A DNA stretch of 64,000 bases from Vermamoeba vermiformis (Eukaryota). Positions 9,665 to 34,161 of the stretch are shown piece by piece. The stretch covers positions 1 through 64,000 of the forward strand of contig JBEWZL010000136.1 in NCBI GenBank assembly GCA_045837725.1, in the 5' to 3' direction. Numbering within the stretch: position 1 is the stretch's first letter; every line of letters begins with the position of its first letter. Position numbers and translations under genes: made by a program. The notes beneath the pieces were generated by a model. The model had not been told where the DNA came from and searched no databases. It worked only from the letters and a program-made list of their open reading frames with translations.

Positions 9665-9675
9665 TACGGGTCAAT

Positions 9676-12939: not shown

Positions 12940-12987
12940 TTAATTTTGTTTTTTTAAAAATTTAATCTGCTTAATATACCCCTAACA

Positions 12988-13524: not shown

Positions 13525-13641
13525 AAAATTGAAAAAGCATTTTTTAATTTAATTTGCGTCAAATTAAAAAGTAGTATTATATACTTTATAAACCAACTTG
13601 CAAAAAAAAAGCATAAGCGACTAACATTATTCATAACTATA

Positions 13642-14184: not shown

Positions 14185-14215
14185 TGACGATTCAAAAAAA
14201 TAATCTTTTTTTGGC

Positions 14216-14776
14216 CTATTCAACCATTGTATCGAAAAACTCCTCAGGATTATGCAATTCCGACTTAATGGTTTCATATGTTAGATAAAGGACGGCTTTT
14301 TTCACCTCATCCTTAGACTTATTCGTTTCATTCAAGTACTCGAAGTCATCCCAGATACGAAACCAAATTTTGTCTTTGAAGACTCGCGAAAGGTTTTTCA
14401 CTAAAATATCTTTTACAAAGGCATATCTATCGATCCTATTTTGTGGATAAGCTATATGATTTTCGAAAAAGGCCTCCTTGAATATCATTACTGGGAATGT
14501 GTATCTGACTTGTCGCCGGTCCCAGGCGGAGGCATTCCAGCCTAATACATAATTTCCTGTCGGATGCCGCACCGGCTTATCCTTGCATATCGGGTCGTTG
14601 TCGTACTGATCGCAGTAAGCATCGATCCAATAGATGGGATAGCAGGCTTTGCAGACGTATATTGATCCAACTTTTTTAATCGTAGTAATATTTTTGCAGT
14701 GATCGCAGGTGAAATAATATGCGATATGCCATTTGCAATCGTCATTTAAATCCAATTTAGACAATATTATTTCCAT
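14216..14776 (-). CDS. Viral protein with F-box-like N-terminus and CxxC...CxxC finger (paralogue family)
   Basis: MEIILSKLDLNDDCKWHIAYYFTCDHC...CKAC; N-terminus shared with 22176-22781 and 23287-23802. Confidence 0.7.
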   Translation of the reverse strand: MEIILSKLDLNDDCKWHIAYYFTCDHCKNITTIKKVGSIYVCKACYPIYWIDAYCDQYDNDPICKDKPVRHPTGNYVLGWNASAWDRRQVRYTFPVMIFKEAFFENHIAYPQNRIDRYAFVKDILVKNLSRVFKDKIWFRIWDDFEYLNETNKSKDEVKKAVLYLTYETIKSELHNPEEFFDTMVE

Positions 14777-14852
14777 CGGTATTGCTCATTATATGAAAGC
14801 ATAATAAAAATCTAATTTAAAAAAAAGATAATCTTATTTTTTGGTCATTTGT

Positions 14853-18242: not shown

Positions 18243-18288
18243 ATGGAAAATTAAAAATTAAAATATCAATTTTTTAAGGGTCTCAATA

Positions 18289-18373
18289 ATGTGGCGCGAC
18301 GGCGACGTGGAATTTTGATAGTTATATAAAATAGTTAAAAGTTATGTCGCCGTCCCGCCACCTGAGTTGGGCC
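18289..18373 (+). repeat. Palindromic intergenic element, copy 2
   Basis: GTGGCGCGACGGCGAC...TTTTGATAGTTATA...GTCGCCGTCCCGCCAC-CTGAGTTGGGCC between divergent genes. Confidence 0.9.
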
Positions 18374-18422
18374 TATTAATTAATTTGTATAATTTAAAAA
18401 TTTAATAGTCGTAATTATAGAC

Positions 18423-19088
18423 ATGCCGAAAGTGAAGGCTAATGTTCAATTTGCCTCGAGAGGGCGACCAGCTGAATTGGAAACTAAAGACCTACCTATA
18501 GCGCCTGAAGTGGCACCTGTTGCGCCCTTAGTGCCCGTTGAAATGCCCCCTGAGAAGCCCGCGGCCAGTGTCGTAATTCCCAATGCTAAGGTAGACAAAG
18601 TACGTGCTGATGCACCTATTCGTATTGACAAACTGGACCTTGGAATGGACAACGTGCCCGAAAGCATGCCCGAAACGAAACCAGTGAAGAAAATACCCGT
18701 AAAAATTGAAATTGACCCCGAGATAATCGTGAAACAACCTACAATGCAACGTCCAACAACAAGTCCTATGGTGGACGTTGTGGACCCTAAAATGTCGCGT
18801 CGCATCGATAATATGAAACCAAGGGGAATTGGCCACCCACCAGAAAGAATATTAAAAAAAAACAATTATTACGCGAATGGTACGCCAGGCACTCGCAATG
18901 CGACTCTAGCGACAGCGACACAGACTGAAGAGTCGACTTTCGACTGGACTAGCGTGTTAATGGTAGGTCTCGCTGTGGGTGCTGTTGCGCTACTTGCCAA
19001 GGGGAATAAAGACCCCGATAACGGGCACAACGGGGGTGGATTAGCGGGAGAAAACTATGACTGGAAAAAGTCTTTATTAGGTATCTAA
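18423..19088 (+). CDS. Viral Pro-rich protein with C-terminal transmembrane anchor
   Basis: 221-aa ORF; hydrophobic segment WTSVLMVGLAVGAVALLA. Confidence 0.75.
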   Translation: MPKVKANVQFASRGRPAELETKDLPIAPEVAPVAPLVPVEMPPEKPAASVVIPNAKVDKVRADAPIRIDKLDLGMDNVPESMPETKPVKKIPVKIEIDPEIIVKQPTMQRPTTSPMVDVVDPKMSRRIDNMKPRGIGHPPERILKKNNYYANGTPGTRNATLATATQTEESTFDWTSVLMVGLAVGAVALLAKGNKDPDNGHNGGGLAGENYDWKKSLLGI

Positions 19089-19132
19089 CACGCCCATCGC
19101 TTTAAGCTTTTTTTATTTTTTTGGTTTTTTAA

Positions 19133-20194
19133 TTAGTTTTTGTTCGTGCGCTTGGGTCTGTTTGTGTTGAGCTCGTCGTCTTCATCGTTATCCGAGCCGC
19201 TGCCATACTGCGCCTCAACATCACTGTTGCTACTCTTAGCGTTGAATAGCTTTCCTGGACTTTTGCGTACCTTGGTCTTACGTGAGCCGTCAGAAAGCGC
19301 GCGTCTCTTTCTCTTAGGCTTCGATACAATCATTACATCGTCATCATCACTCTCGACACTGCCTTCATTATCGCCCCATCTGCTCTTGCGTGTCTTTTTC
19401 TTGGGCGTAATCATCGCGATCTCTGCTGCTGTAAGTTGTTCTCCGTTAGCCTGCTTCAATTTTATCTCCTTTTTGGTAATCTCGTTCGTCATTTTTTCAA
19501 TGGTCTTTTTGTTTTTAACCGCTGCTTCCTTCTCGGCCACATTTGACATGCGCGGCAGTAGGTTGAGTGCGGCCATTTGCAATTCGGGTGCTTTTTCATC
19601 TACATGCAGCAGTTTTTTGACGTAGCTAATAACCGTAATCTGTCGTTGCAATCGCTCGCCATAGCACGTAATGCAGAGTTTGAGTGGGTTGGTACCATAA
19701 AGCGCATTGCAAAACTGGCGTTTGCTAGGCATTTGAATGAATTTGATGTTGATGCAAAGGTTCTGCCTCGCGTCCCAATTCGGCAACTTGAAATATTCGC
19801 CAGCGAAGACCAATATGTCCGTGTAAAGTAGGTCAAGCAAACGCGGGTCCTTTTTATCAAACGCTTCTGTTATTCTCTTTTCTAAAGCTTTCGTGCCGGT
19901 CTCTTCTGGGGGCTGCTGCACTGCAGGCTGCCGCTGTGGTGGTGGCGCTACTGGGTGCTCTTGGAATGCTTGCTGCTGCGGCACGGGTCGTTGAGGAGTG
20001 CTCGGGCTCGGGTCCGCAGTTTGAATATTAATGGTTTGAAGCTGGGGCGCCTGCTGTTCAGTTGTTTGCGCTGCGGTAGGTAAAGGTTCACTGGACGGTG
20101 CTTCGCTAGCGCCTGACGTGGTCGTTGGGTTGGTGCCTGCTTTTCCCCTATTTCCGCCTTTTTTCGCTGATGACGCTGGTGCTGTGGTGCTCAT
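19133..20194 (-). CDS. Viral low-complexity protein with basic NLS-like segments (353 aa)
   Basis: Q/P/T-rich N-terminus; PKKKTRKSR and KPKRKRR. Confidence 0.7.
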   Translation of the reverse strand: MSTTAPASSAKKGGNRGKAGTNPTTTSGASEAPSSEPLPTAAQTTEQQAPQLQTINIQTADPSPSTPQRPVPQQQAFQEHPVAPPPQRQPAVQQPPEETGTKALEKRITEAFDKKDPRLLDLLYTDILVFAGEYFKLPNWDARQNLCINIKFIQMPSKRQFCNALYGTNPLKLCITCYGERLQRQITVISYVKKLLHVDEKAPELQMAALNLLPRMSNVAEKEAAVKNKKTIEKMTNEITKKEIKLKQANGEQLTAAEIAMITPKKKTRKSRWGDNEGSVESDDDDVMIVSKPKRKRRALSDGSRKTKVRKSPGKLFNAKSSNSDVEAQYGSGSDNDEDDELNTNRPKRTNKN

Positions 20195-20252
20195 AATTAC
20201 AATTTAAAATCTCCCAAGTGCTCGCAAGTTCGGAAAAGTGAGCGAAAAGATA

Positions 20253-20322
20253 AATTTATCGATCGGAATTTCTGTACTGACCAATGGGGTAGCTCCGTCG
20301 TGGAAATACCGATCGATAAATT
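20253..20322. promoter_or_regulatory. 20-bp inverted repeat around a CCAAT-containing spacer between divergent genes
   Basis: AATTTATCGATCGGAATTTC (20253-20272) vs GAAATACCGATCGATAAATT (20303-20322), 19/20 complementary. Confidence 0.55.
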
Positions 20323-20980
20323 CCTGATGGATTCACTTGTCGGAGCTTTGCCGCTCTTGCGAAACCATAAATTGGAATTCAACCGTCAATTCATTTACCG
20401 TTTATTCGACGATTATTACAACATGTCTGTTTGGAATATGCACACCCTTACCAATGCGCTGCCCGCGCCTGCCAACCCTCCTGCTGCTCCTACGCAGCCG
20501 TTTGGTCAATTCAACGCACCTTTTGCTCCGAATGCCGCATTCGCTGCGCACCAAAACATCGTTCCTTACAACGCTGCACCCGCTGCTGGCTCATTGGCTC
20601 CTATGCAGCAGTATTTCGGCCCTATCGCTCCAACTGTTCAAACCCCGGCCTTCAGCCTTGCTCAGTTCAACTTCAACCCGCACTGTGGGAAGCGATGCTC
20701 GTACACGACCAGACCTAGAGGAGGTAAACCCGCAAAGCGCTGCCCTATCGTTTGTCGCGAGAATATGGCTTTCAAAACTATTCCCGGCATGGACGATTAT
20801 GTGTTTTGCAGCAAGCACTTCACCAAGACCTTTGAAGGCTTGAAGAATAGTGCTCTCAAAACGATTGAGAATCGCAATCAACAAAAGGCCATTATCGTGC
20901 AACAAAAACAAGACTTCAACCAGCGAGTGGCAGAGCTAGACAAGGAGTACCAAGAGCTGGAGGCGATGGACTGCTCATAA
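20300..20980 (+). CDS. Viral protein with Pro/Ala-rich region, C-C-C-H zinc finger and coiled coil; likely start at the ATG near 20423
   Basis: CSYTTRPRGGKPAKRC...FCSKH. Confidence 0.65.
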   Translation: MEIPIDKFLMDSLVGALPLLRNHKLEFNRQFIYRLFDDYYNMSVWNMHTLTNALPAPANPPAAPTQPFGQFNAPFAPNAAFAAHQNIVPYNAAPAAGSLAPMQQYFGPIAPTVQTPAFSLAQFNFNPHCGKRCSYTTRPRGGKPAKRCPIVCRENMAFKTIPGMDDYVFCSKHFTKTFEGLKNSALKTIENRNQQKAIIVQQKQDFNQRVAELDKEYQELEAMDCS

Positions 20981-21179
20981 TTCCGTGTCTAGTGGCTTTA
21001 CCCCGAGCCAAAAAACTAAAAAAAGGGGGCATGATTAACATATATAGCTCGGCGTAATGAATTGCATGGTGTTCTTCGAGCCGCAACCAATTTTTCCGCT
21101 GGACGGCAAACATGTTGTAATATGAGAATAAACGGTCAACAAAAATCAAGCGTGCGATTGTTTATTTTTTATTTTAGCA

Positions 21180-21479
21180 ATGACATATCAACAACAACTC
21201 ATCGATTTAGCTTTTACGCAGCAAGTAATCGACCTACGAAATGACAGCGTATTCGAGACGATATTACCGCTCGCAAGCTACTTCGCTAATAAAGATAGTA
21301 ATGCCCTACTCGTCGTCAATGCAGTCGTAGTTCCGCCCGGCGCTTTTGCGGACGAAAAGGAATTCATCAAGAATACACCTCTTACTTCAAATGTAATTCT
21401 GTTCACCATGAAACCAAATAATATCAAACCAAATAATACTCAATCAATAGCTGATCGTCGCACTTTCAATAAGAAATGA
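21180..21479 (+). CDS. Viral hypothetical protein (99 aa)
   Basis: ATG ORF with AT-rich upstream region. Confidence 0.5.
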   Translation: MTYQQQLIDLAFTQQVIDLRNDSVFETILPLASYFANKDSNALLVVNAVVVPPGAFADEKEFIKNTPLTSNVILFTMKPNNIKPNNTQSIADRRTFNKK

Positions 21480-21634
21480 ATTAAACTTGTAAACTCTGAA
21501 TTACCCGTTCACTGAATTGTTCCAAAAAATAAAATTTAGTCAATCTCTCGAGATTTGACGTTTTCTAAAAATACCCGACCAAGCACCCTCCCTTGCTCAT
21601 AGACAAGTGATTTTAGGCCCAAATCCATAATATA

Positions 21635-22132
21635 TTATGACTTTAGGCTACTTTGCTCGTTGTTAGCCGCTTCCAAGGCAATCAAACTTTTTCTAATATT
21701 TTTCGACTCGGCAAGCATTTCGCCAAACACTTTAATAAACTCCAATAAACAATCATTATCATGAAATACGAGGCAACCATTATCATTTTTTTCCGATTTT
21801 ATTGACAAAGTCCGTAAAATTCGTGCCCTAGTGTCATCGACTTCAATTGTTAAAGGCCCACAACTACGCATGAATTGCCCCTTATTTATTGCCTTATTGG
21901 TCATAATTTGTTCGGCGTCTTTGGTAAGTTCATGCAACTTCGTCAATGCTTGTAGTAATTCGTCTGCACTTTTCAGGCTACTCTCGGGTCCAAAATCAAT
22001 TCGTAAAGTAAGTCTAGAGCCACCAATAGTGCGATGTTGCACTAAAATATGGTCTTCTTTAATACTCGTTGTCAAACGAATTTCATAATTTAATTGCGTA
22101 ATATTTTCGCGTGATTGAGTAATCGAATGCAT
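21635..22132 (-). CDS. Viral hypothetical protein (165 aa)
   Basis: Intact ATG ORF. Confidence 0.6.
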   Translation of the reverse strand: MHSITQSRENITQLNYEIRLTTSIKEDHILVQHRTIGGSRLTLRIDFGPESSLKSADELLQALTKLHELTKDAEQIMTNKAINKGQFMRSCGPLTIEVDDTRARILRTLSIKSEKNDNGCLVFHDNDCLLEFIKVFGEMLAESKNIRKSLIALEAANNEQSSLKS

Positions 22133-22175
22133 ATTGATTTATAATATTAAAAAATAAATTTTTAATTCGACAAAA

Positions 22176-22781
22176 TTAAATATCAAAATAATTATCTGGA
22201 ATTGCTAGGCAATCTGTATATTCATCTACAGCAACGCCATCGTAATACATTAAGACAATTATAGTCTGCCTATTTGGCAACGAAATTAATGTTGCAAAGT
22301 CATAACCATGTGTAAATTTACTTATAATCTCTTGCTGTTCCGCGTTAGGTTTGTTTTTTCCCCTAAAGTTAATTATAATATGGTAAACGCTATCGTTCGT
22401 TTCAGGAAAGTAGAGCTGGCGCTGGTAAACATGGGCCTTGAAGTATTTACAAACAGTCCTCAATAGTTCAACGTTAATGGCCGAGCAAATATAATGCACC
22501 CTTGGGCGATAGATAGGAGCTGATGGCGTCTGACCTAAGTATTTAGTCTTATATTGGAGTGTTTCCCTCTCGAATCTTTCCATGTCGATACGCAACTCAA
22601 AGCATTCACTACAAATGCCGTCATTTAATATTCTAATTTCACCGCAGCAATCGCACACAAAGTATTTGCTAATTTCGTGCTTTATGTCGTCGATTATGTC
22701 GAGCTTTGAAATGATTATCGCGGCCATTGTGCTGTAAGTAGTAGTATTAAAAAATAATGTCTTGGGCCTAATAGACAACAT
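22176..22781 (-). CDS. F-box-like/Zn-finger paralogue 2 (probable start at the internal MAAIIISKLD)
   Basis: IISKLDIIDDIKHEISKYFVCDCC...CSEC. Confidence 0.7.
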   Translation of the reverse strand: MLSIRPKTLFFNTTTYSTMAAIIISKLDIIDDIKHEISKYFVCDCCGEIRILNDGICSECFELRIDMERFERETLQYKTKYLGQTPSAPIYRPRVHYICSAINVELLRTVCKYFKAHVYQRQLYFPETNDSVYHIIINFRGKNKPNAEQQEIISKFTHGYDFATLISLPNRQTIIVLMYYDGVAVDEYTDCLAIPDNYFDI

Positions 22782-23045
22782 TTAGTAGCATTCAACGACC
22801 TCGTAAATCATGCGCTTGTACGCGGCATTAGTGGACTTGATATGTCGCGACTTGACCGCTACTTCAATTACATCACGCACCACACTAGGGTCCGACGCGG
22901 CAACGCCTAGCACGATGTTATGGTCGAGCTTCAGGTGCTTACAAAGTGCGTTGATGGCCGCGTTAAACTCTGCCTTAGTAGGTGCGTAGTATTTGGCGCT
23001 AATAGCGAGCTTGACGTAAGCATTGAAGTGATCTTGCAATGACAT
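22782..23045 (-). CDS. Viral hypothetical protein (87 aa)
   Basis: ATG ORF abutting the next gene. Confidence 0.55.
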   Translation of the reverse strand: MSLQDHFNAYVKLAISAKYYAPTKAEFNAAINALCKHLKLDHNIVLGVAASDPSVVRDVIEVAVKSRHIKSTNAAYKRMIYEVVECY

Positions 23046-23162
23046 TATGTAAGTGTATGTATGCTATAATGCGTTATAGTAGCTTATATATACCTAGATC
23101 GGCCTAGTATTTATATCAAAATTAAAAAACGAAAATTACTTTTTATAATCTAGATTATTAAT

Positions 23163-23253
23163 AGGCCCATCTCAGGTGGCGGGACGGCGACGTTAAAAAT
23201 CCTATACTTATAACTATCAAAATTTCCACATCGCCGTCGCGCCACATCAGTCA
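23163..23253 (-). repeat. Palindromic intergenic element, copy 3 (inverted, near-identical to copy 1)
   Basis: Reverse complement matches 12849-12939 with 2 mismatches by eye. Confidence 0.92.
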
Positions 23254-23286
23254 AACTACTTAAAAAATACGAAATAACTTTTTTAA

Positions 23287-23802
23287 TTACTCGCAAAGGT
23301 GCCTAAACATCGCGGGCGTTTGGTCGAATAACAAAGGCGCACAGGCCTCGAATAAAAGCGCCACTATTGCGTACTTTAGGTCGTTGTAGTCATTGATCAG
23401 GTCCTGTACGTAGTCTACGTAAAAGCCCCATACGCGAAACCAAACAAGGTAATGTCGCAACTTTTGACTAATTGCGCGTACAAACTCATTAAATATATCT
23501 CTACTTAGTGATACATGCGATGCATAGTCGTAGACTTCTCTTGGATACGCGCGGTGCATTTGTATCAGACCTGGTAGCAACCTAATGCGGCCCAAATGCA
23601 ACCACAGGCCGTGGTTTAGGCCCAATTCGCGGCACACAGATGCCCAATAAGGCACCCAATGAAACCTACAATCGCTACAGACCCACTTTCTTCCAATGTA
23701 CCTCAAACCCGCGACACGCCCGCACGATTCGCACTTGAAATATGCCTTTATCAGGTATTTCACGTCATCGATGATATCTAGCTTATCAATTATGATCTCC
23801 AT
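23287..23802 (-). CDS. F-box-like/Zn-finger paralogue 3
   Basis: MEIIIDKLDIIDDVKYLIKAYFKCESC...CSDC; also shares WFR(I/V)W with 14216-14776. Confidence 0.7.
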   Translation of the reverse strand: MEIIIDKLDIIDDVKYLIKAYFKCESCGRVAGLRYIGRKWVCSDCRFHWVPYWASVCRELGLNHGLWLHLGRIRLLPGLIQMHRAYPREVYDYASHVSLSRDIFNEFVRAISQKLRHYLVWFRVWGFYVDYVQDLINDYNDLKYAIVALLFEACAPLLFDQTPAMFRHLCE

Positions 23803-23906
23803 TTAATTAATCAAACTTAAAAATTAAATTTAAATATTTTATTTTAAATTAAATATCTATGCGGTTTATATAACTATACTTAAACATTAGGATACACACG
23901 CGTAAA

Positions 23907-24098
23907 ATGGATATCCCAAATGCGCCTATTCGCCAACGTAAAGCAAAGGAATACGCACGTCCCCACTGCCCTGTATGCAACATTAGACACACCTACAAAA
24001 ACTCTAATGTATGTAGTTTGTGCCGACAGCGACTCAATATTGGTCGTAAACATTTGGAGGCCGCCAATGATTATGAGCGCTTCAGACATTTATTGTAA
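23907..24098 (+). CDS. Small viral zinc-finger protein
   Basis: CPVC...CSLC in a 63-aa ORF. Confidence 0.55.
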   Translation: MDIPNAPIRQRKAKEYARPHCPVCNIRHTYKNSNVCSLCRQRLNIGRKHLEAANDYERFRHLL

Positions 24099-24206
24099 GT
24101 ACTGTTAAAAAAATATAACTGTGTTAATGTAATAACTATTGTAGGTTAACCCAATTAACGTCGTAAACATCGTTAAATTTTATGTGATAGATATTTTTTT
24201 GGCCTT

Positions 24207-24377
24207 TTACTTACGTTTGCGATCCTTTTTTAGTTTCGCCCCGCGCTTGTGTCTTGCCTTTAGTTTCGCTGCATTGGCCTTAGCAACGACCTTACTGTGG
24301 CCCTTTGGGTAATGTCGGTAATGGCCGTCTACCGTGTAGGTAGGTACCCAATACTTAGTCCTTAGGTTTGTTGGCAT
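24207..24377 (-). CDS. Small basic protein (56 aa), absent from the ORF track
   Basis: Manual translation: MPTNLRTKYWVPTYTVDGHYRHYPKGHSKVVAKANAAKLKARHKRGAKLKKDRKRK*. Confidence 0.6.
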   Translation of the reverse strand: MPTNLRTKYWVPTYTVDGHYRHYPKGHSKVVAKANAAKLKARHKRGAKLKKDRKRK

Positions 24378-24398
24378 TGTATATTTAATGTAGTAAAT

Positions 24399-24686
24399 TT
24401 AATTAGGTAAATACGCCCACATGATCAGGGCCAATCCGCGCCTTGAATAGGTCCCTGTTGCGGCATTGTACAGTACCTCACGATTGGCCCTAGCTTGCGC
24501 AAGGTGCCGTGCAACAAACGCATCACGTTTGCGGCGCCAGTCGCTCGATAGGCGCGTGTAGGATCCATTGGCGCGTCTATAGGCCGCGAGAAAGCCCCGT
24601 TTGGACCTCGCAACGGTACTGACCCCGCGTCTCTTGGCCTCAGGCACGTACTTTTCAATCTCAGATAATTTCATATACTGGTACAT
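24399..24686 (-). CDS. Arg-rich viral protein (95 aa)
   Basis: WRRKRDAFVARHLAQ...LALIMWAYLP; part of a co-oriented block. Confidence 0.65.
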   Translation of the reverse strand: MYQYMKLSEIEKYVPEAKRRGVSTVARSKRGFLAAYRRANGSYTRLSSDWRRKRDAFVARHLAQARANREVLYNAATGTYSRRGLALIMWAYLPN

Positions 24687-24704
24687 TGCTATATGATATA
24701 ACGA

Positions 24705-24938
24705 CTAATTTTTTGTATTATTAAACACAGGCGATGGAAGAAGTATTCCCGCGACGGTGCTTAGCACAGGCAATCCAATTCCAACATTACCAGTCGCGCA
24801 CAAGAAAATACCTATGCCTACGATAGATAAGCTCGCAATGGCCGCCGTAGACTGCGGTAAGATTGCCTTTATAATATCAATTGTCGTATTACTTTTTGGC
24901 GCTTCTTGTTCGGGCGACTGCTGGTTTTGCTGCGACAT
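24705..24938 (-). CDS. Small two-TM viral membrane protein
   Basis: Two hydrophobic segments in 77 aa. Confidence 0.6.
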   Translation of the reverse strand: MSQQNQQSPEQEAPKSNTTIDIIKAILPQSTAAIASLSIVGIGIFLCATGNVGIGLPVLSTVAGILLPSPVFNNTKN

Positions 24939-27511
24939 TTTCTAGTCTTTCAATACGCTGGATTAAATCATTCACTATATTTTCAAGTGCCATATTTTTG
25001 TCTTGTAATTGTTTAATCAACTGCTTTTGGTGCTTTATTATTCCGAAGCTGATAAATGCAATTTCGTCGCCTGATACGGTCTGTATCGGGTCATCGGGAT
25101 TTTCAATAGTCTTCGGGTGAGTAGGTGAGGTGCGTATATTACCCAATTGGTGCTTCGTGTATAATGCATTCACCTCCTGTGCAATCATACCAAGCTTGAT
25201 ATCACTGGCATCTTCGTCGTCTTTGTAGTTGAAGTTAACCACCTGTACGGTGTCTATGTCGTCGTAAATATCGGCGATTGGGAGCTGTCTACGAATATTC
25301 TTGAGCCTAATATCAGAAATCGTATTCCAGGTCGTTGTAGTTAATTGAAGGCCTTGACTACCGGCTGCATTGGTTGAAAGATAATATCCCCCGGACATAC
25401 GCCCATAAAATGTCTTCTTTTGATTCGAAATTCAATTTGGGATTGAATTACCGTGTTTGCTAACACGCCCATCTTTCGCATGGGGATTGGACTATATCTT
25501 AAGCAATATCTACCATTTCAATAGATATCACCAACATCCATTTAGTCTCTGGACGCGATTACGTATAGTTAACGTAATATTCGCTGCGGATTGCCCATTT
25601 GACGCCTAATAGCAATCTATCGTATAACTTTTTACAATAGTCCAAATCATGAATTTGAAATGTTTTACCTGTAATTAACAGGGACTGTGTATTATACGCT
25701 TTAGGGGTTTCCCGCAATTTGAATGTTTCGCGAATAAAAGTATTTATTCACTATCGGCTACTTTTATAGCCGATTTAACGAGCAAGACATAATTTACTCG
25801 TTCCGCACGACACTGCTGTGGCGCTACTATCGCTGACACAGAAGCAATTGGAAAATGATGTCGAGCAATATGATCCAAAGATAAGAGTGCCGCCCGTATT
25901 GCCTGAAATGGTCGTATTTCCATTGCCGCTGCATAAAATCATGTTGGCCCCTGCGGTGGCCGTAATGCTGCCTCCGTTAGACGATATAATCGTAGAATTA
26001 TTGCCTCCTGAGATGCTTGCTGGGGTATTCGATGAAATAATGGAATTGGTGCCACCAGTGGACGTTATAGACCCCGAAGTTGACGCTATAATGGCCGAAT
26101 TGTCCGCACCAGACCCTAATGTGTTGCCACTGCCAACTACAATGGCGCGATCGACAGTTGAATTGATCGTGTTAGGTGTCGTGCCGCATACATCAATGCA
26201 CCTCATTTCACCTAGTCTATTGTTGTTGCACAGGATAAACTTAAAGTCAGAATCCAAGTTCAAGCTACCACCACCTTCACCATAGCAAGTGCCGACGTTG
26301 ATTTGACCACTCGATGCCGTATTGGATGAGTTCCTGACCTGTAAAACACCTGTAAGGGCCGATTTAAGTTGCGTTTGACCTAGCGTATTAATGGTCAATG
26401 TGCCCGTATTGATGGTGCCATCAGTACCCCCTACAGTGGTGCCTGAATTGATTGTACCGGCCATATTGATGACGGCCGAAGCCGGATTGATGTTAATATT
26501 ACCGGCGCTGGTAAGGTAATTGTTTGAGTAGACCGTCCCGGCCTGTACAGTACCGTCATTACCCCCGGCGGTAGATCCTACTTTGAATATACTACCTGTA
26601 GCGCCTGTAAGGTATGTGTTCGCGGCATTAACACCATCTCCAAGGACCAATGCGTCTGTATTACAGCTAAATCTTGGGTTATTATCACCAGATACTCTCA
26701 CGCTGAATTTAGTAAACCCTGCTACTGAATTAGGGAAAGTAATGGAATTCACTATTAGGTTAGCTGTATTACCACTCAGATCCTGAATTACAAGATATCC
26801 TGCACTTCCATTGACTAATTGTACGCCACCGGCCGCCGTAAGTTGCACATAGCCGACGTTCGTAAGACCTTTGTTGTTAAAAACGACATTGTTGCCGACT
26901 GGATTGATGTTTAAGTCGGCGCTATTGGTCGAAATAGTGTCGGTATAGGTCGTACCTAAGCGTAATGTTCCATTGGCCGATCCTAGTGCGGTGGTGGATA
27001 ATGTAAGATTACCTGCACCGGACCTGTACGCGAATGTATCTGCAACGTTATTGCCTGCTGACCATTGCATTGATCCGTCAGTTTTAATGGCCAATTTAGG
27101 GTTCACACCGGTAGTTGGATTGGTCGCGGTCAGGATACTAGTGGTGTTGCTACTGGACGACGTATTTATCGTTTTAAGGTCCAATGTGCCGCCCGTGATT
27201 GCCAATTCATTGGCCCCAACGCGTTGCAATCTGGTGTCCAATGCGTTAGTACCATCGCCAAAGTCAATGAATCCATCATACAACAGACTTAACCTATCGT
27301 TGGCGTCTCCAGTTATTTTAACACAGAATGCATCGGACCCACTAGACCCCACAAGAGGGCACAGTGAAGTTCCACTAGGGGGCTGTACAACTACATTGAT
27401 AGTGTTGTTGTTCGTTATACTACCCCCGCTAGGGTCAGTGTTGTCTATCCTTTTGTTGATATTTACAAAATCCATGAATTTATTATCAAGTATATTATAT
27501 TGCACAAACAA
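24889..27511 (-). CDS. Virion fibre/spike protein with C-terminal intramolecular chaperone (peptidase S74/ICA) domain; two exons (27511-25796 and 25416-24889), 747 aa after splicing
   Basis: G/N/T/S-rich beta repeats; SDIRLKNI...NFNYK...GMIAQEV plus coiled coil; junction ACG AGT|AAG ACA TTT TAT is in frame. Confidence 0.85.
25417..25795 (-). ncRNA. Group I self-splicing intron (379 nt, no internal ORF)
   Basis: P AAUUGCGGGAA (about 25709-25719), Q AAUCCGCAGC (25583-25592), R CAGAGACUAAA (25541-25551), S AAGAUAUAGUCC (25489-25500); P1 AACGAGU/GCUCGUU with U.G at the 5' splice site; P10 AUGUCUU/AAGACAU; terminal omega-G at 25417. Confidence 0.93.
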
Positions 27512-27636
27512 TGGTACTCGAAACTATCCTAATGTTAATTTTCATAGGCGGGGTCGTCGCCTACTTCGCAATGCTGAGGACCCAAAAGAAGCCTTCAAAG
27601 GGCCTAATCTCGCGTATAGACATGCTCTAAAAAAGG

Positions 27637-27720
27637 GGCCCAACTCAGGTGGCGGCACGGCGACGTAAGATTTACTATTTATATAACTATCAAAATATTC
27701 ATGTCGCCGTCCCACCACAT
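27637..27720 (-). repeat. Palindromic intergenic element, copy 4 (inverted)
   Basis: GGCCCAACTCAG-GTGGCGGCACGGCGAC...TATAACTATCAAAA...GTCGCCGTCCCACCAC between divergent fibre and capsid blocks. Confidence 0.88.
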
Positions 27721-27790
27721 TACTAGGGTAATTAATTTCGTTAATTTAAAAATTTAATACTACTTAATATAGTTCCTATTAAGCATACTA

Positions 27791-28132
27791 ATGGCCACAC
27801 TTAGGGAGTGTTATGATAAATTAATCGCAAAGTTCGTGGGCTTTGCTGCACAACTATTTCCCGATAATGAAGACATCAAAATGGCCTTGGCGCAACTTAC
27901 ATTGGCCCCTATGCTGATGGTTTGTTTCAACGTAAAGCAAAAGATTAAGCCTGAATGGATCGATGGTCAATTAAACCCAGCTGTCGCACTTAGTACTTTC
28001 AAAATCGACCTGAGTAAGTTGAAAGACGACGATTTGAAGCGCCTTAATGGATTCATTGAGGCACTTATCATGTTGTCTGACGAGGTAATTGGTGCCGCCA
28101 ACGAAACCATTTCAAAGGACAAACAGGCGTAA
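27791..28132 (+). CDS. Viral helical protein (113 aa) upstream of the MCP
   Basis: F...QLFPDNEDIK...LKDDDLKRLNGFIEALIML pattern recalls a small NCLDV protein family (not verified). Confidence 0.65.
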   Translation: MATLRECYDKLIAKFVGFAAQLFPDNEDIKMALAQLTLAPMLMVCFNVKQKIKPEWIDGQLNPAVALSTFKIDLSKLKDDDLKRLNGFIEALIMLSDEVIGAANETISKDKQA

Positions 28133-28210
28133 GGATAATGGTTTAATATAATATTTTATTTTTTTCGCGTGGATTTAATATAGATTATCTGACAAACCTA
28201 GTTTAACAAG

Positions 28211-29458
28211 ATGTCAACCACTAATTTTCTTACCCGTTTAGGTGATCGCCCGTCTTCATCTTTGAAGCTCATTAACGCAAACAATCCCGCGTACGAGACG
28301 ATCACTGTGAGGGACGCTGCTGGTCAAAATCAAGTCCTCCAAGCCGACCAAGCACGCTCTCATGTCTGCAATCAATACGACGTTGTGATCCCCGCGTTGA
28401 CCGTGCCTGCAGGCGTTCTTAACTCTGGCCGTGTTGATTTCCGTGTCCCCACCAACAATCTTAACTTCATCACCTCTGTGTCGCTCCAAATGACCATCTC
28501 CGAGACTGGAGGCGTGAATCCTATTACATTGTTGCCGGCACCCTTAATCATCGACTATATCCAGATCTACGCTGGAAACGGCCAGACCTTGATTGAGCAA
28601 CGCTATGGTGATGAATTGTGGCTCGATAACGCCTGGAGGACGTCTGAGCAAATGACATTGTTGGCCAACGCTGAAAACACCACAGCGACTTACGGTGCCG
28701 GTACTGCGATCAGTGCAAGCGGTTCTGCAACCTACTACGTCCCTATTGAGTGCCATTTGTCCCGATTGGAGTTGTTTGCCCCTGCTATTTCGTCTGACTA
28801 CTTATTCCGTGTTAACTTCCGATCCATCACCGCAATGACTGAGTCAGGTACTGGTACTCCCTCATTGGCGTCTGCTAACTTGATCTTCAAGTGCACTGAC
28901 TTGTCGCCTGCTGAGTGCAACAGATTGATGAATGAGTATCGTAGCTACAGACACACCTTCAGATATATTCAACCGGTCCGTCAGACCTACACCCAGGCCT
29001 TGGCCGCTTCGTCTGCTTATACCTTGCAACTCAACGGTGTCAACGGTATTGCTGCTTACTTCCAGGGTCTCGTCAGATCATCTAATACTGGTGCTGCTCT
29101 GCGCCAATCTGATCCTAACATATCTACACTCGATCTTCGCAACAACGCCGGTCAATCAATGATTGGAGGTCAGCCGTTGCCTTTCAACTACCTGCGATAT
29201 GTTAAGTCTGCCGAGTACTTCCCTAGTAGCATGTTGGTCAATATTCCTTTCCTTTGGTATTCGCACTCTGAAGACCCCAAGAAGGTCTGGGATATCAACG
29301 TTGTCGATGGCTTCAACGTGTACACCGGTCTTGAGCAATTATACATCACTACTGGCTCTGGCATCACTCCTGGTACGTTCTACATCGACTTGTACTTCAT
29401 GATGTACGGAATCATCGAGGTTAACACCGACGGTAGCGTATTCCAATACTCTTCTTAA
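28211..29458 (+). CDS. Major capsid protein (double jelly-roll)
   Basis: 415 aa, beta-rich; LIIDYIQIYAGNGQTLIEQRYGDELW and YYVPI resemble DJR MCP N-terminal motifs; next to the penton gene, with the ATPase gene nearby. Confidence 0.82.
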   Translation: MSTTNFLTRLGDRPSSSLKLINANNPAYETITVRDAAGQNQVLQADQARSHVCNQYDVVIPALTVPAGVLNSGRVDFRVPTNNLNFITSVSLQMTISETGGVNPITLLPAPLIIDYIQIYAGNGQTLIEQRYGDELWLDNAWRTSEQMTLLANAENTTATYGAGTAISASGSATYYVPIECHLSRLELFAPAISSDYLFRVNFRSITAMTESGTGTPSLASANLIFKCTDLSPAECNRLMNEYRSYRHTFRYIQPVRQTYTQALAASSAYTLQLNGVNGIAAYFQGLVRSSNTGAALRQSDPNISTLDLRNNAGQSMIGGQPLPFNYLRYVKSAEYFPSSMLVNIPFLWYSHSEDPKKVWDINVVDGFNVYTGLEQLYITTGSGITPGTFYIDLYFMMYGIIEVNTDGSVFQYSS

Positions 29459-29518
29459 GTAGCTAATGAAATAGCAAAAAATAAGGCCATTGGGCATTAT
29501 ACCCATTTTTTTGAATAA

Positions 29519-30265
29519 TTAATTAGGGCGCTCCTGCGTGATCTCGAGGGTCATCGTCCAGTTGGCGCCATTGAGGTCTACATCAGCATAGGTGCGCGAC
29601 TTGAGCATTACCGTGAAGGTCTTGAGATACACCCTGTTTGACAACTGAAGCTGTTGGAATTGCGTATTAATATTGAAATTTACATAATTAATGCTGTTTT
29701 GATCCATTGGTATTTCGAAAGTATAGCTAAGTCCATCAGTAGTCGCTAGGGGCGCTCCGAGCTCCTTTATAATAACATAAATGGGCGTAGGAATGCCTAA
29801 ATTGAATACATTGGTGCCTGTTTGGGATGTAGCGCTGCCTGTATCGGTCGTGCCGAATCCTAGCACTGCATTCATCGTGGACTGCGATAAATTAAGTACA
29901 AACGGATTAGTCCCTGCAATGGTCGTCTTGAGTGTTGTTGAGTCGAAAGTAATGGTAAATGCATTGGCGTACACCGCATTCATCGCCGCGGCCAGAGCTG
30001 CACTCAGTGTGGATGTTGTATAGGCCCCAGCGGCCAACGTTATTGTGTAAGTATTGCCCGCTGCTGTGAATACTAAAACATTGTTTGATGAGGTGATATT
30101 ATAAATGGTATTTGGGACCTGAGCATTCAATAGTCGCACACTAATAACACCGTCAAGGGCGTCTTGAATCGTGCATATAAAGTTGCTACTCGTGCCGCTG
30201 CTACGGTCGGCTGAGTTAATGACAACAGGTTTAATTTGCAATTGCTTTTTATCACTGCAACACAT
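29519..30265 (-). CDS. Minor capsid (penton-like single jelly-roll) protein
   Basis: INSADR...SSNF...VISVRLLNAQVPNTIYNI...DLNGANWTMTLEI, typical of PLV/NCLDV minor capsid proteins. Confidence 0.8.
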   Translation of the reverse strand: MCCSDKKQLQIKPVVINSADRSSGTSSNFICTIQDALDGVISVRLLNAQVPNTIYNITSSNNVLVFTAAGNTYTITLAAGAYTTSTLSAALAAAMNAVYANAFTITFDSTTLKTTIAGTNPFVLNLSQSTMNAVLGFGTTDTGSATSQTGTNVFNLGIPTPIYVIIKELGAPLATTDGLSYTFEIPMDQNSINYVNFNINTQFQQLQLSNRVYLKTFTVMLKSRTYADVDLNGANWTMTLEITQERPN

Positions 30266-30377
30266 CTTGAGATTTTATATTAAAGGCGCAAAAAAATACT
30301 CATACACATACATAATGTCTTCAAGCTTACTACACTCGACCATTACAAATCTTTAAATCGCGAAAGACTGTAGCACC

Positions 30378-30677
30378 TTAGATACTCCTTAGATCTCTTA
30401 TCAATGTGGACAGCACGATAGCACCGCCGATAATAAGGCCACCATATATGATCCAGTCGATATGCTCCGCAATTCCAATTACGTTTTGGCCAACACTGAC
30501 TGTCCTATCCGCTATAGTAGTGAGTGGGTCGTCGCCTAAAATCTCACCTTGTCGTTTGCAATAAACCCTTCCTGCGACTCCGAGCCACCTACAGGCCGCC
30601 GACACATCATAATTATAGCATTCGGGGATAAGATAACTCAATGGTCCAGTCGAGCAATAAATTGGTAAATCTGCCAT
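30378..30677 (-). CDS. Small Cys-containing viral membrane protein
   Basis: C-terminal TM WIIYGGLIIGGAIVLSTLI. Confidence 0.65.
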   Translation of the reverse strand: MADLPIYCSTGPLSYLIPECYNYDVSAACRWLGVAGRVYCKRQGEILGDDPLTTIADRTVSVGQNVIGIAEHIDWIIYGGLIIGGAIVLSTLIRDLRSI

Positions 30678-30727
30678 TCTTGAAAAACTAAATTAATCTA
30701 TATTATTAATGTTAATTTTTTGTACGA

Positions 30728-31090
30728 TTAAAACAGCATATCTCCGAGCATTACACCTAGTACTGTGCCTGCACCAGTGATGCCATTGAAGACGTAGCTA
30801 GTCGCTGTTTGGCCGATTGAGTTGGCGATTGGCCAATATATGGTCCTACCAAGGCCAATTTGAAGTGCATTGACGGTCGCTACAATGCCCAACATTTCGG
30901 CACTGCTCAATTGATCGCCGTTTGATGTCTTAACTAAAACATATGATGCCAAACCCATGATGCTACCGTTAACGCCCGCTGGAAGGGACTGATTGATTCC
31001 ACTGAGTGATTGGTACAATGGCGGATATGTGAGCGGCGAAACAAACTTGTCAGCCGCTGCTGCGATACCTCCCATCAAAATTAAATCCAT
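30728..31090 (-). CDS. Viral multi-pass membrane protein (paralogue of 12424-12783)
   Basis: Hydrophobic 120-aa ORF with similar N- and C-termini. Confidence 0.75.
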   Translation of the reverse strand: MDLILMGGIAAAADKFVSPLTYPPLYQSLSGINQSLPAGVNGSIMGLASYVLVKTSNGDQLSSAEMLGIVATVNALQIGLGRTIYWPIANSIGQTATSYVFNGITGAGTVLGVMLGDMLF

Positions 31091-31145
31091 GTTTTCTGGT
31101 TGTATATAATATTGTATCCAAACTATTTGATAAAATAATTATTTG

Positions 31146-31616
31146 TTAATTTACCCAGTTGTACAACCAGTTTCGGTACGCGTAATCAGCACCTACTTCA
31201 GATAACATCGCGACACCCACTATATTAATCAATGCTGATGTATTGAATATCTGGCCGTCGCCAATGTAGAGAAGGGCTACGGTACCGAGTGCATTAATGG
31301 CTGGATTCGCTAAGGACTTTTCAAAGTCGCTAAGGGCACGATAGTCATTTACTTGCTCAATGACTGTCTCGCTGAATGCATTGGCAATTAAATTACCACC
31401 TGCGACTGCCATACCAAGGGCCATTGGAATACTCATATCATAACCGAAAAATGGTATTCGGCCCTGTCCTTGGCCCATGAAACTAGACACGGCGTATGCT
31501 ACAGCGCCCGCCGCCAGGGGCTTGGCCGCCACTTTTGAAATGCGTTGAAGCGTACTCTCACGCTCACCACTGGCCATGGCCGATCCCATCGGCATATATT
31601 GTGAATACTTGTTCAT
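31146..31616 (-). CDS. Viral multi-pass membrane protein (156 aa)
   Basis: About four Gly/Ala-rich hydrophobic helices. Confidence 0.75.
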   Translation of the reverse strand: MNKYSQYMPMGSAMASGERESTLQRISKVAAKPLAAGAVAYAVSSFMGQGQGRIPFFGYDMSIPMALGMAVAGGNLIANAFSETVIEQVNDYRALSDFEKSLANPAINALGTVALLYIGDGQIFNTSALINIVGVAMLSEVGADYAYRNWLYNWVN

Positions 31617-31665
31617 TGTTCGACTTCAAAAAAACTATATTATTGTTGTAATTTTTTCAAATAAT

Positions 31666-31803
31666 TTAAATGGTTCCCTTGCGGTACTGGGCCGAAGCCT
31701 TTTTGACTGCTGCTTTCCAGCTGCCGCCCCTCTTATGGATTTTCTTGGCCTTTGCAACAATCTTTTTGAGTGCTGTTTGGCCCTTCTTCGCTCCTCTCTT
31801 CAT
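31666..31803 (-). CDS. Very basic 45-aa protein (candidate DNA-condensing core protein), absent from the ORF track
   Basis: Manual translation: MKRGAKKGQTALKKIVAKAKKIHKRGGSWKAAVKKASAQYRKGTI*. Confidence 0.65.
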   Translation of the reverse strand: MKRGAKKGQTALKKIVAKAKKIHKRGGSWKAAVKKASAQYRKGTI

Positions 31804-31849
31804 CGTTCGACTGTGATTAATAACTTAAACTATATTTTAAGGTACAAAC

Positions 31850-33025
31850 TTAATTTTTAATTAATTGTATTTGGTTTCGCACGGTCGTTATTGTCCCGCC
31901 ATCAGGGGCCTCAACAGTGTACTTGCCGCCATATACCTTGCTAACTGTGTAAATCTGCTTAGACCATTGAGGTATATAACCCTTTACGAAGTTGTGCCTT
32001 CTGTCAGATTGCAACCTAGGGTCTAATGCATAAATGGACACACGCACTTGATTTCCAACAGATACCTTCGGGAATTCCCTTGTGGTTTGTTTAATAGACT
32101 TATCCGCGGCCTGTTTGATACGTTTAGCTGCGGCTTTGGCCGTAGGATCACGCCTGTTCTTATCATGAAGGGAGAAAGGGCGGCACTTGGTAGTCGCATG
32201 TAGGGATTCGTTGTACATCAAAACGCACCAGTCAACAACGCGTCTATCTACCTTAAGGCGCGGTCCTGAGTTGTTAAGCATGTACTTTTGAATAATCCCC
32301 TTGATAGTCTTATTAAATCTCTCCACGATTCCCTGAGACTCCTTCACGTACACACCGGACCTAATATGCTTTGGATGGCCACCATTTGCCCTTGCAAATT
32401 CGTCAATGAAGGCCCTGAAGCTCGCTTCGAATTCCACTCCATTGTCCGATTTGATCACTTTTGGATGGTTCTGGGGCGTCATAATCTCACGCATGAAGTT
32501 CGCGGTATCAGTGGACGTCGGAGTCTTACCGTTGCGCTTAAGTAATGTCTTTACCCATGCGAATTTCGAAAAACAGTCTATGACACAGAATAGCCACACA
32601 TCTTCGTTATCGCCTGACTTGTAAAGGGTGCAATCGCATTGCCACACAGCATTAGGTTCCCGCACAATCGTTGGTCTTGTAATAGGATTGTTGCGTGCGA
32701 CATATCGTGTCCTTTGTTGCGTTTCATTTTTATTCAACCATTCATTTATGAATCTGAATGATATATTTGCGTATTCACGCTTGAGGTCATCGAAAAGTTT
32801 ATCACGGCCCAATCCGGTCTCTTTGTAGCGTGCTGATACAATCTCCTCGGCCTCCTGGGGTCTCACTACACGTCTATTGGTGCCAGAGGCGAAAAGTACT
32901 CCATTGCGCAATTCAAATTGGCTCGCAACGGCCTTAAAACGGTATATCCCGGACCTAGCAAGCGGCGGCAAGGCCCCTTCTGAGTGATACGCGATGATCC
33001 TGTTAATGTCCTCGTCAGTTAACAT
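31850..33025 (-). CDS. Retroviral-like (rve) DDE integrase, Polinton/PLV type
   Basis: WQCD, VIDCFSKFAW, IKSDNGVEF, SQGIVERFNKTIK, YNESLH, C-terminal VGNQVRV...FVKGYIPQWSKQIYTV. Confidence 0.95.
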   Translation of the reverse strand: MLTDEDINRIIAYHSEGALPPLARSGIYRFKAVASQFELRNGVLFASGTNRRVVRPQEAEEIVSARYKETGLGRDKLFDDLKREYANISFRFINEWLNKNETQQRTRYVARNNPITRPTIVREPNAVWQCDCTLYKSGDNEDVWLFCVIDCFSKFAWVKTLLKRNGKTPTSTDTANFMREIMTPQNHPKVIKSDNGVEFEASFRAFIDEFARANGGHPKHIRSGVYVKESQGIVERFNKTIKGIIQKYMLNNSGPRLKVDRRVVDWCVLMYNESLHATTKCRPFSLHDKNRRDPTAKAAAKRIKQAADKSIKQTTREFPKVSVGNQVRVSIYALDPRLQSDRRHNFVKGYIPQWSKQIYTVSKVYGGKYTVEAPDGGTITTVRNQIQLIKN

Positions 33026-33073
33026 TTTGTAAAAATAATTTTTTATTTTACTATATTATAGCAGGAAAAGATA

Positions 33074-33853
33074 ATGAATGCAATTAAGACCCCTTCATCC
33101 ATTTTAATGTGCGCGGCCCCGATGGCTGGCAAATCATACATGATATCCTATTTACTGTACTGTTTGTGCAAAATGAAGCGATTTAACCATGTTCTCGTGT
33201 TTTCACCAACGGCCCACGACGATTACAAGTTTGTGCCTGAAAATTGGCGTTATGACGAGTGGAAGCCTGATGTCGTGCAACATCATATGGCCCAACAGAA
33301 ACGACTGATGGGCGAAGGTAAAAACATTCAAATGGCAGTTGTTTTCGACGACATCATAGGTACTTTTAATATGAAAGACAAGCTCATTGAAAAACTAATG
33401 ACAACATTTAGGCATTATAATATGACTATATTTGTCGCGACTCAGTGGGTTTATGCATGCCCACCGTCGATTCGTAATTCGGCTTCGTATGTATTTATAT
33501 TTCAACAGTCAATGGCCAGGGCATTTGACGCATTGTACGAGTCATTTGGCCAATTGTTCGAGACCAAGGAGCAATTCAAGCGCGTGATAAATTCCTGTAC
33601 GCATGACTATAATGTACTTATGTACGATCGAATGGCCCCAAATGATATCCGTAAGAAATACAAAGTAGTCAAAGCAGGTGTTGTACCGTCCAATTTTAAA
33701 TTAGTTGATGCCGCGAAACAAAAAAATTCTCAAACTAAAAATTTAAGTTATGATAATTATAATACAAATTACAACGAAGATGACGACACCGAATACCGTG
33801 GACAAATCGTTCCTCGCTCAATGCATAATTATGGCCGCGGAGGAATTTATTAA
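33074..33853 (+). CDS. A32-like genome packaging ATPase (FtsK-HerA superfamily)
   Basis: Walker A AAPMAGKS, Walker B VVFDD, RHYNMTIFVATQ, PPSIRN. Confidence 0.92.
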   Translation: MNAIKTPSSILMCAAPMAGKSYMISYLLYCLCKMKRFNHVLVFSPTAHDDYKFVPENWRYDEWKPDVVQHHMAQQKRLMGEGKNIQMAVVFDDIIGTFNMKDKLIEKLMTTFRHYNMTIFVATQWVYACPPSIRNSASYVFIFQQSMARAFDALYESFGQLFETKEQFKRVINSCTHDYNVLMYDRMAPNDIRKKYKVVKAGVVPSNFKLVDAAKQKNSQTKNLSYDNYNTNYNEDDDTEYRGQIVPRSMHNYGRGGIY

Positions 33854-34076
33854 AATCGAGGACAACAGCAGGGCCGCTTTACTTACTTATAATAATGACA
33901 ATCTGTTGGAAATCAAGTTGCTTCAATCAGGTGGTTTCATTGCAGCTGAAGCGGCCAAGATGTACATAGCCGCGCGTGGTGGGGCAGCTACACAGGCGGC
34001 ACTTAAGGCCGAGATGGAGCGTGCTATGAGGGCTGAAACGGACCCTGTAGCAGTGCGGGCTCAGGATAGCGAGTAG
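33750..34076 (+). CDS. Viral hypothetical protein whose 3' end lies inside the right terminal repeat (likely start about 33780)
   Basis: Frame reads ...ETDPVAVRAQDSE* with stop at 34074-34076, inside 34046-34161. Confidence 0.55.
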   Translation: MIIIIQITTKMTTPNTVDKSFLAQCIIMAAEEFIKIEDNSRAALLTYNNDNLLEIKLLQSGGFIAAEAAKMYIAARGGAATQAALKAEMERAMRAETDPVAVRAQDSE

Positions 34077-34161
34077 GCAGCGCTGAGCACGATTTATGCT
34101 TGATTTATGCATGCCGGGCCTAATTTTTTGTTAGGCAGTGTCTCGATGTCGCACTATTTCA
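34046..34161 (+). repeat. Right terminal direct repeat (116 bp, TG...CA)
   Basis: Identical to 9549-9664; followed by TSD CCAAG. Confidence 0.97.

Follow-up and report, generated by a model that had tools for sequence, protein, structure and literature searches.

A probable group I intron in the fibre gene of a polinton-like virus integrated in the Vermamoeba vermiformis genome

Introduction

A stretch of 64,000 nucleotides of Vermamoeba vermiformis DNA (GenBank assembly GCA_045837725.1, contig JBEWZL010000136.1, positions 1 to 64,000; hereafter the window) contains two neighbouring open reading frames (ORFs) on the minus strand that together resemble one viral fibre protein. The first runs from 27511, where it opens with TTG (its first ATG is at 27475), to a TAA stop at 25775-25777, and the second lies in another frame at 25398-24889. 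The question raised by this locus is whether the two ORFs are separate genes, a broken gene, or the two exons of a single gene, and, in the last case, what removes the sequence between them.

An original prediction, made from the letters and an ORF list, proposed that a group I ribozyme intron separates the two ORFs. It named canonical P, Q, R and S elements, the helices P3 and P7, a P1 helix with a U.G pair at the end of exon 1 (codon 572), a P10 helix with the 3' exon and a terminal G. It further claimed that splicing joins the exons in frame into a 747-aa protein, that the unspliced RNA would yield a fibre lacking its folding chaperone, and that the gene belongs to a small provirus in a nuclear genome. 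A group I covariance-model search and a look for intron-less alleles in related elements were suggested as checks. The analysis reported here indicates that the minus-strand segment 25417-25795 is very probably a complete group I intron without an endonuclease gene, situated in the fibre gene of an integrated polinton-like virus and excised to give one protein.

Results

Covariance-model match and fold of the intron

The covariance-model search identified RF00028, the Rfam group I intron, as the sole Rfam family reaching threshold in the window. The match, at 25467-25778 on the minus strand, scored 100.7 bits, where the gathering score is 50, has an E-value of 6.4e-25 when the whole 64-kb window is searched, and extends over the full model (positions 1-253 of 253). 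No other group I match at E<=1 is present in the viral element that surrounds the fibre gene. The P, Q, R and S blocks that had been claimed are all seen in the RF00028 alignment (AAUUGCGGGAAA, AAUCCGCAGC, CCAGAGACUAAAU and UAAGAUAUAGUCC, respectively), and the NC line of this alignment marks zero non-standard pairs. The two helices given in the prediction are present as described, P3 (AACAUUC/GGAUGUU) with 7 of 7 pairs and P7 (GACUA/UAGUC) with 5 of 5. In group I introns, the P7 helix holds the guanosine-binding site.

A structure drawn by hand for the whole intron comprises P2, P2.1, P3, P4, P5, P6, P7, P8, P9, P9.1 and P9.2; P5 branches into an extension about 100 nt long. Each of the 111 pairs in this structure is standard, which shows only that nothing is broken, because it was drawn from the intron's own sequence. 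When the core was tested, P3, P4, P5, P6, P7 and P8 were found to pair fully. The unconstrained minimum-energy fold of the intron has a free energy of -110.9 kcal/mol, compared with -74.7 +/- 4.9 for shuffled sequences (z = -7.45), and none of 100 shuffles was as stable. This fold recovers every drawn helix but the pseudoknotted P7; the peripheral hairpins P9.1 and P9.2 are both present in it. The G+C content of the intron is 36%, against 45% in the exons. There is no ORF of its own in the 379 nt, just a read-through of six codons from exon 1, and no homing endonuclease gene was found inside the intron according to the ORF list.

Splice sites and guide sequence

The splice sites were assigned from a 12-nt internal guide sequence whose two halves are contiguous. 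The half GCUCGU (25778-25783) faces the last six bases of exon 1, ACGAGU, and forms P1 with 6 of 6 pairs, the last exon-1 base U25796 standing opposite intron G13 as the cleavage-site wobble. The half UGUCUU (25784-25789) faces the first six bases of exon 2, AAGACA, and forms P10, again with 6 of 6 pairs. By our own arithmetic, a full set of 12 pairs in fixed register, G.U included, would arise by chance with a probability of about (6/16)^12 = 8e-6. The final intron base, 25417, is G. P1 with its U.G pair, P10 and the terminal G thus stand as originally proposed.

Joining 25796 to 25416 keeps the reading frame. With an exon 1 of 1716 nt (counted from TTG 27511), an intron of 379 nt and an exon 2 of 175 codons, the in-frame junction of the prediction is borne out. 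The GT...AG pairs near the boundaries were also enumerated; 16 combinations are in frame, and 16 of 16 delete conserved residues. The group I junction is therefore the sole junction that fits the protein family.

Colinearity with intron-less relatives

A word-index search with exon 1 retrieved a protein of 958 aa (P0001) that shares 38% identity with it at 93% coverage and carries PF13884, the Peptidase_S74 domain. Exon 1 aligns to this protein up to residue 768-769 and exon 2 from residue 770. When exon 2 was used as the HMMER query against 1.84 billion representatives, 142 matches were obtained at E<=1e-3; the best full-length ones were used to build an alignment (A3), in which exon 1 is represented by its C-terminal 100 aa only. 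The junction falls between column 917, the last of exon 1, and column 918, the first of exon 2. It is embedded in a conserved block, and all seven full-length rows (P0001, P0003 and P0005-P0009) cross it gap-free. P0145 (732 aa), which shares 53% identity with exon 1 over the last 258 residues, likewise crosses the junction gap-free, bringing the total to eight of eight contiguous relatives; at the protein level, none of the eight is interrupted there.

The contig that encodes P0001 (L002) is the sole related DNA locus recovered, the one confirmed of 347 pattern matches in a metagenome scan. It contains a single uninterrupted ORF over the site (...TCGGGT/AAAACG...) and has no Rfam match. The intron-less alleles suggested as a check were accordingly found both as continuous DNA and as gap-free proteins, and the distribution of the intron is sporadic.

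Split forms of the gene were also looked for. None turned up when exon 2 was searched in the word index at near lengths. A protein of 183 aa (P0004) was considered as a split form and rejected; it shares its 90% cluster with the contiguous P0145 and is an internal-Met fragment. Among fibre relatives in IMG/VR, exon 2 gave just one weak match of 24 residues (L001), a second alignment (A2) confirmed 0 of 113 pattern matches, and the P0004 query confirmed 0 of 8.

The predicted spliced fibre protein and its chaperone domain

The spliced product would have a length of 560 + 175 = 735 aa when counted from ATG 27475 and of 747 aa when counted from TTG 27511. The codon 572 and the 747 aa of the prediction hold for the TTG start and fail for the first ATG, from which exon 1 has 560 codons. 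We regard 735 aa as likelier than 747 aa; our choice of the ATG at 27475 depends on its being the first one, since A3 includes only the C-terminal 100 aa of exon 1. The N-terminal Met of P0003 occupies the first column of A3, a position shared with the other full-length homologues. Exon 1 is rich in Gly, Ser, Thr and Asn, its repeats resemble those of relatives annotated as fibres, and it has no match in Pfam or PHROG.

The chaperone domain is encoded by exon 2. The match to PF13884, named for the chaperone of endosialidase, spans profile positions 1-56 of 58 and starts at exon-2 Ser34, 33 codons past the junction, and seven PHROG tail-fibre families also match exon 2. Residues 34-39 of the exon read S-D-I-R-L-K, with the S, D, R and K columns nearly invariant in A3. 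The motif includes a Ser and a Lys five residues on, which we take to be the cleavage dyad of endosialidase work. In known fibres, Peptidase_S74 folds and trimerises the protein and then cleaves itself off at its first serine. The intron therefore stands 33 codons ahead of the serine at which self-cleavage is expected, close to the boundary of mature fibre and chaperone. Unspliced RNA would add six codons to exon 1 and then reach the TAA, so its product would lack the chaperone, in agreement with the original claim.

RNA data

Three RNA runs labelled as the same species, of each of which about 46-48% was covered, gave 0 reads on 24700-27700, which says nothing for or against expression or splicing. 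In a run that carries the label of another organism, and is taken only by guess to be RNA, a 355-nt contig matches 26720-27074 with zero differences and stops short of the intron. Separately, an estuary metagenome shares a tenth of the sampled words. The element or a close relative of it may occur outside this genome.

The integrated element and its surroundings

The fibre gene lies in an element bounded by direct repeats that are identical to each other (Table 1). The motif CCAAG stands immediately outside both repeats (9544-9548 and 34162-34166) as a 5-bp target-site duplication. Inverted terminal repeats are usual in polinton-like viruses, whereas this element has direct ones; direct repeats with TG...CA ends and a 5-bp duplication are the end structure of long terminal repeat elements, and this structure fits the rve integrase encoded near the right end. 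The ORFs of the helicase, the integrase, the ATPase and the candidate capsid protein are all open. With identical repeats, a target duplication and open ORFs, the element looks young and intact.

The candidate major capsid protein is proposed from a protein atlas, in which it has a feature score of 0.98 to clusters with 12-18% Capsid_N members, a lead only. It gave no match in Pfam or PHROG, its AlphaFold model, computed from a two-row alignment, has a mean pLDDT of 38.4 and is too poor to use, and a search of IMG/VR with this protein confirmed 0 of 4 matches.

Outside the repeats, the sequence changes in character. A P-type ATPase gene is split between frames, 35538-36035 encoding the E1-E2 domain and 36258-38048 the remainder, and fragments of haem-peroxidase, GST and LRR genes occur in sparse ORFs. 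To judge from these ORFs, the flanks look like eukaryotic nuclear DNA in the arrangement of their genes. In the protein atlas, the ATPase ORF was placed with bacterial-labelled clusters alone, which is uninformative as to the host taxon. The repeats, the gene content and the nuclear flanks together lead to the assignment of the element as an integrated polinton-like virus. The small provirus in a nuclear genome that had been proposed is consequently supported by terminal repeats and a target duplication beside an intron-split cellular ATPase gene.

Table 1. Features of the fibre gene, its intron and the surrounding element (window coordinates).
Feature	Position	Strand	Remarks
Fibre exon 1	25796..27475	-	560 codons from first ATG; ORF list starts at TTG 27511
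Group I intron	25417..25795	-	379 nt; 5' end 25795, terminal G 25417; assigned from RF00028, P1/P10 and fold
TAA stop in exon-1 frame	25775..25777	-	Six codons into intron
Internal guide sequence	25778..25789	-	Contiguous halves UGUCUU-GCUCGU, intron positions 7-18
Catalytic core, P2 to P9	25467..25778	-	Rfam model match
P3 5' strand, AACAUUC	25721..25727	-	Pairs with 25533-25539 GGAUGUU, 7/7
P7 5' strand, GACUA	25543..25547	-	Pairs with 25490-25494 UAGUC, 5/5
Peripheral hairpins P9.1 and P9.2	25429..25467	-	3' of Rfam match; 6/6 and 8/8 pairs
Fibre exon 2	24889..25416	-	175 codons and stop
Peptidase_S74 intramolecular chaperone	25150..25317	-	PF13884, E 5e-9, 36.7 bits against cut-off 22
Integrated polinton-like virus	9549..34161		24,613 bp between terminal repeats
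Left terminal direct repeat	9549..9664	+	116 nt, TG...CA; 100% identical to right copy
Right terminal direct repeat	34046..34161	+	116 nt; 100% identical to left copy
HNH endonuclease, free-standing	13642..14184	+	PF13392 E 2e-7; phrog_99 E 2e-29; 11 kb from intron
Helicase, Herpes_ori_bp-like	14853-18242	-	E 4e-32
Candidate major capsid protein, 415 aa	28211..29458	+	Divergent from fibre gene; protein atlas lead only
DUF5901 protein	29519-30265	-	Library match inside element
rve integrase	31850-33025	-	E 4e-11
A32-type ATPase	33074-33853	+	Pox_A32 E 6e-6

Two kinds of repeated sequence were seen in and beside the element. A partly palindromic module of about 50-100 nt, with the core GTCGCCGTC.CGCCACCTGAGTTGGGCC, is present in four intergenic copies within the element, in both orientations (12828-12957, 18248-18420, 23133-23288 and 27628-27772). 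The copies stand where gene direction changes, one of them separating the fibre gene from the gene at 27791, and these recurrent modules may be shared promoters or terminators. In the host DNA to the left of the element, 2929-3332 and 3950-4385 consist of tandem arrays, one with 50-nt units that each contain a perfect hairpin (GATCGTCTCCGCGCTGGAGACGA.C) and the other with units of about 65 nt that contain ACCATCCGAA.TTCGGATG.

Relatives of the intron and its mobility

A scan of IMG/VR with the pattern of the intron core yielded at least 126 loci, a set that is biased because the search pattern came from this intron. Among the matches listed, the nearest introns are located on one 24.6-kb contig, IMGVR_UViG_3300003406_000078 (L129, positions 370-20399), which has eight RF00028 matches, all on one strand, and four GIY-YIG ORFs in 20 kb. 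From this content, our guess is that the contig is a giant-virus fragment. In a phage collection of 50,697 records, the intron had no blastn match at E<=1e-3. There is a hint here that the intron is kin to the introns of giant viruses rather than to those of phages, and it should be taken as a lead only. As for the means of movement, the free-standing HNH enzyme of the element could, speculatively, supply cutting in trans for mobility of the intron or the gene.

Dense clusters of group I introns were noted in two other IMG/VR contigs, with seven RF00028 matches in 3.1 kb of IMGVR_UViG_3300037466_002091 (L011) and six in 3.5 kb of IMGVR_UViG_3300034096_001425 (L048). Tiny exons lie between the matches in both.

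Discussion

Proposed course of splicing

If the segment acts as the group I intron that its anatomy suggests, the 12-nt guide would pair in the fibre transcript with the end of exon 1 (P1) and the start of exon 2 (P10). A free guanosine bound at P7 would attack after U25796, the freed end of exon 1 would then attack after the terminal G25417, and the exons would be ligated. The ligated mRNA would be translated into a single protein, 735 aa in length or 747 aa with the TTG start: a fibre rich in Gly, Ser, Thr and Asn whose last 142 residues would form the Peptidase_S74 chaperone. Such splicing depends on RNA alone and needs no spliceosome, and would therefore proceed in any setting in which the virus is transcribed. 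Most likely, the intron is a selfish element that inserted into a conserved block of the gene and would be tolerated because it removes itself.

Alternative explanations

The anatomy of the locus can also be read in other ways. The segment could be a fossil, that is, an intron in a silent provirus whose fold is still recognisable while splicing has been lost or the element is unexpressed, so that the fibre gene is broken. Integrated copies of such viruses are often silent, and with no second intron-bearing copy found and eight of eight full-length relatives free of the intron, the insertion could be recent, unselected and private to this copy. However, no helix carries a disrupting change and the guide still fits both exons in 12 of 12 positions, and neither the open exons and other genes of the element nor its fully identical repeats show signs of decay; we therefore judge a fossil improbable. 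A different view is that the two ORFs are two genes, a fibre without chaperone that ends at the TAA in the intron and a chaperone of 169 aa that starts at ATG 25398 and acts in trans, the RNA between them being a spacer or having some other role. A plain ORF list does call the two separately, and chaperone domains 'fused or adjacent' to fibre modules are noted in other polinton-like viruses in the excerpts from PMC12220804. Against this view, the first six residues of exon 2, which lie upstream of ATG 25398, belong to the block conserved in all eight relatives; this block spans the junction exactly, and P1 and P10 are set for exactly that ligation. There is very little chance that two genes are the right description.

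Removal by the host's own machinery would require a spliceosomal GT-AG intron with an incidental resemblance to group I introns. The host does have such gene structure, as the split P-type ATPase gene illustrates, and the boundaries offer a GT at 25797-25796 and an AG at 25418-25417. Yet this boundary pair removes 381 nt and breaks the frame, every in-frame GT...AG combination costs residues conserved in the homologues, and a match of 100.7 bits (E 6e-25) is not incidental. A spliceosomal intron is accordingly extremely improbable, and excision of a group I intron by RNA catalysis remains the explanation that we favour.

Several points nevertheless weigh against this favoured explanation. Functional self-splicing, and with it catalysis in vivo, is something that we infer from the anatomy of the locus. 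The strong covariance-model score speaks for an intact fold and says nothing on catalysis, and some group I introns depend on protein helpers. No second copy of the intron at this site was found among the relatives recovered, so there is no lineage-specific covariation and no proof that selection has kept the intron working; the nearest introns among the matches listed reach 68% over 247 nt (L116) and 67% over 290 nt (L115). Finally, an alternative terminal G at 25414, three bases on, is also in frame and drops one Lys. This alternative is without P10 pairing and would leave a gap of one residue relative to the homologues.

Route of arrival and implications

One route by which the intron might have reached the fibre gene can be suggested. 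It is conceivable, if unlikely, that it came from a pool of endonuclease-less group I ribozymes that pass back and forth between giant viruses and small viruses replicating in their company, and that it landed at the conserved seam of variable fibre shaft and chaperone module. If this were true, movement would proceed by reverse splicing or with a nuclease acting in trans, for example the HNH enzyme of the element. The spread of the intron would then drag flanking exon sequence along and thereby help to swap host-recognition modules between viruses, and the efficiency of splicing would set the amount of foldable fibre.

Whatever its route, the intron bears on how such viruses are annotated. 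Endogenous viruses 'do not contain introns', according to the relevant passage of PMC10120064, in which this is the reason given for using prokaryotic gene callers. Gene callers that are blind to introns will split fibres of this kind into a 'fibre' and an 'adjacent chaperone', and such splitting may distort published counts of domain architectures. The locus also shows that at least one intron of a polinton-like virus would interrupt a structural gene needed for infection. To our knowledge, group I introns in eukaryotic nuclei are otherwise essentially confined to rDNA, and the present case would add a protein-coding chromosomal site to their habitats.

Comparison with known systems

In architecture, the intron described here appears to have much in common with the Tetrahymena LSU rRNA intron, of subgroup IC1: both have P2, P2.1, P9.1, P9.2 and a P5 extended into a long branched arm, and their core strings in P4 and J8/7-P7 seem near-identical. 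The Tetrahymena intron resides in nuclear rDNA, whereas the present intron lies in an mRNA gene. The td, nrdB and sunY introns of phage T4 are, as the present one would be, self-splicing introns of sporadic distribution in viral protein genes, and the protein interrupted in our element is itself of phage type, with a tail-fibre chaperone. The T4 introns carry or adjoin homing endonucleases, in contrast to the present intron, which has no ORF.

Group I introns have long been known from chlorovirus genes and from the capsid and RNA polymerase genes of mimivirus-like viruses. The introns of large eukaryotic DNA viruses resemble the present one in that they lie in viral mRNA genes, often lack an endonuclease and occupy conserved blocks. 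The differences are the host of the intron, here an integrating virus of 24.6 kb, and the interrupted gene, here that of a fibre. The RNA polymerase case is mentioned in PMC10675990.

The closest known counterparts are found in integrated polinton-like viruses. In a literature search for group I introns in polinton-type viruses and virophages, PMC12220804 (Microbiome 2025) was the sole report, and among the papers listed none was found to place such an intron in a fibre or chaperone gene of a virus of this kind. As far as the excerpts from that report go, RF00028 introns are present in three species, Rhodomonas lacustris, Paulinella micropora and Desmodesmus armatus, within their integrated polinton-like viruses. 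Of the 51 rows in the report's Table S11, 44 belong to R. lacustris, 5 to Paulinella and 2 to Desmodesmus armatus, and they give coordinates and scores only. The text of the report states n = 53 for Paulinella micropora, against the 5 in Table S11, while its total of 51 agrees with the table. With such introns tabulated in 2025, the rarity implied by the original prediction was overstated.

According to the same excerpts, these introns belong to the same RNA family, are found with the same model and sit in the same type of integrated small virus as the intron in V. vermiformis, and their lengths of 231-549 nt are similar to the 312-nt model match obtained here; no row of Table S11 has the length and score of the present intron. 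For R. lacustris, the introns are assigned to a gene without annotation that encodes about 50 aa and immediately precedes the capsid gene; in our element, the fibre gene with its intron lies next to the candidate capsid gene and is transcribed divergently from it. Peptidase_S74 fibres are described there as ubiquitous in polinton-like viruses, with the domain sometimes 'adjacent' to fibre modules. The excerpts contain no splice sites, guide pairings or restored proteins and place no intron in a fibre gene, unlike the case presented here. The V. vermiformis locus is thus a clean new example of an intron type already reported in such viruses, and it provides, for the introns so far counted in them, a fully worked case in which the splice sites, the pairings of the guide, the restored protein and an allele without the intron are all specified.

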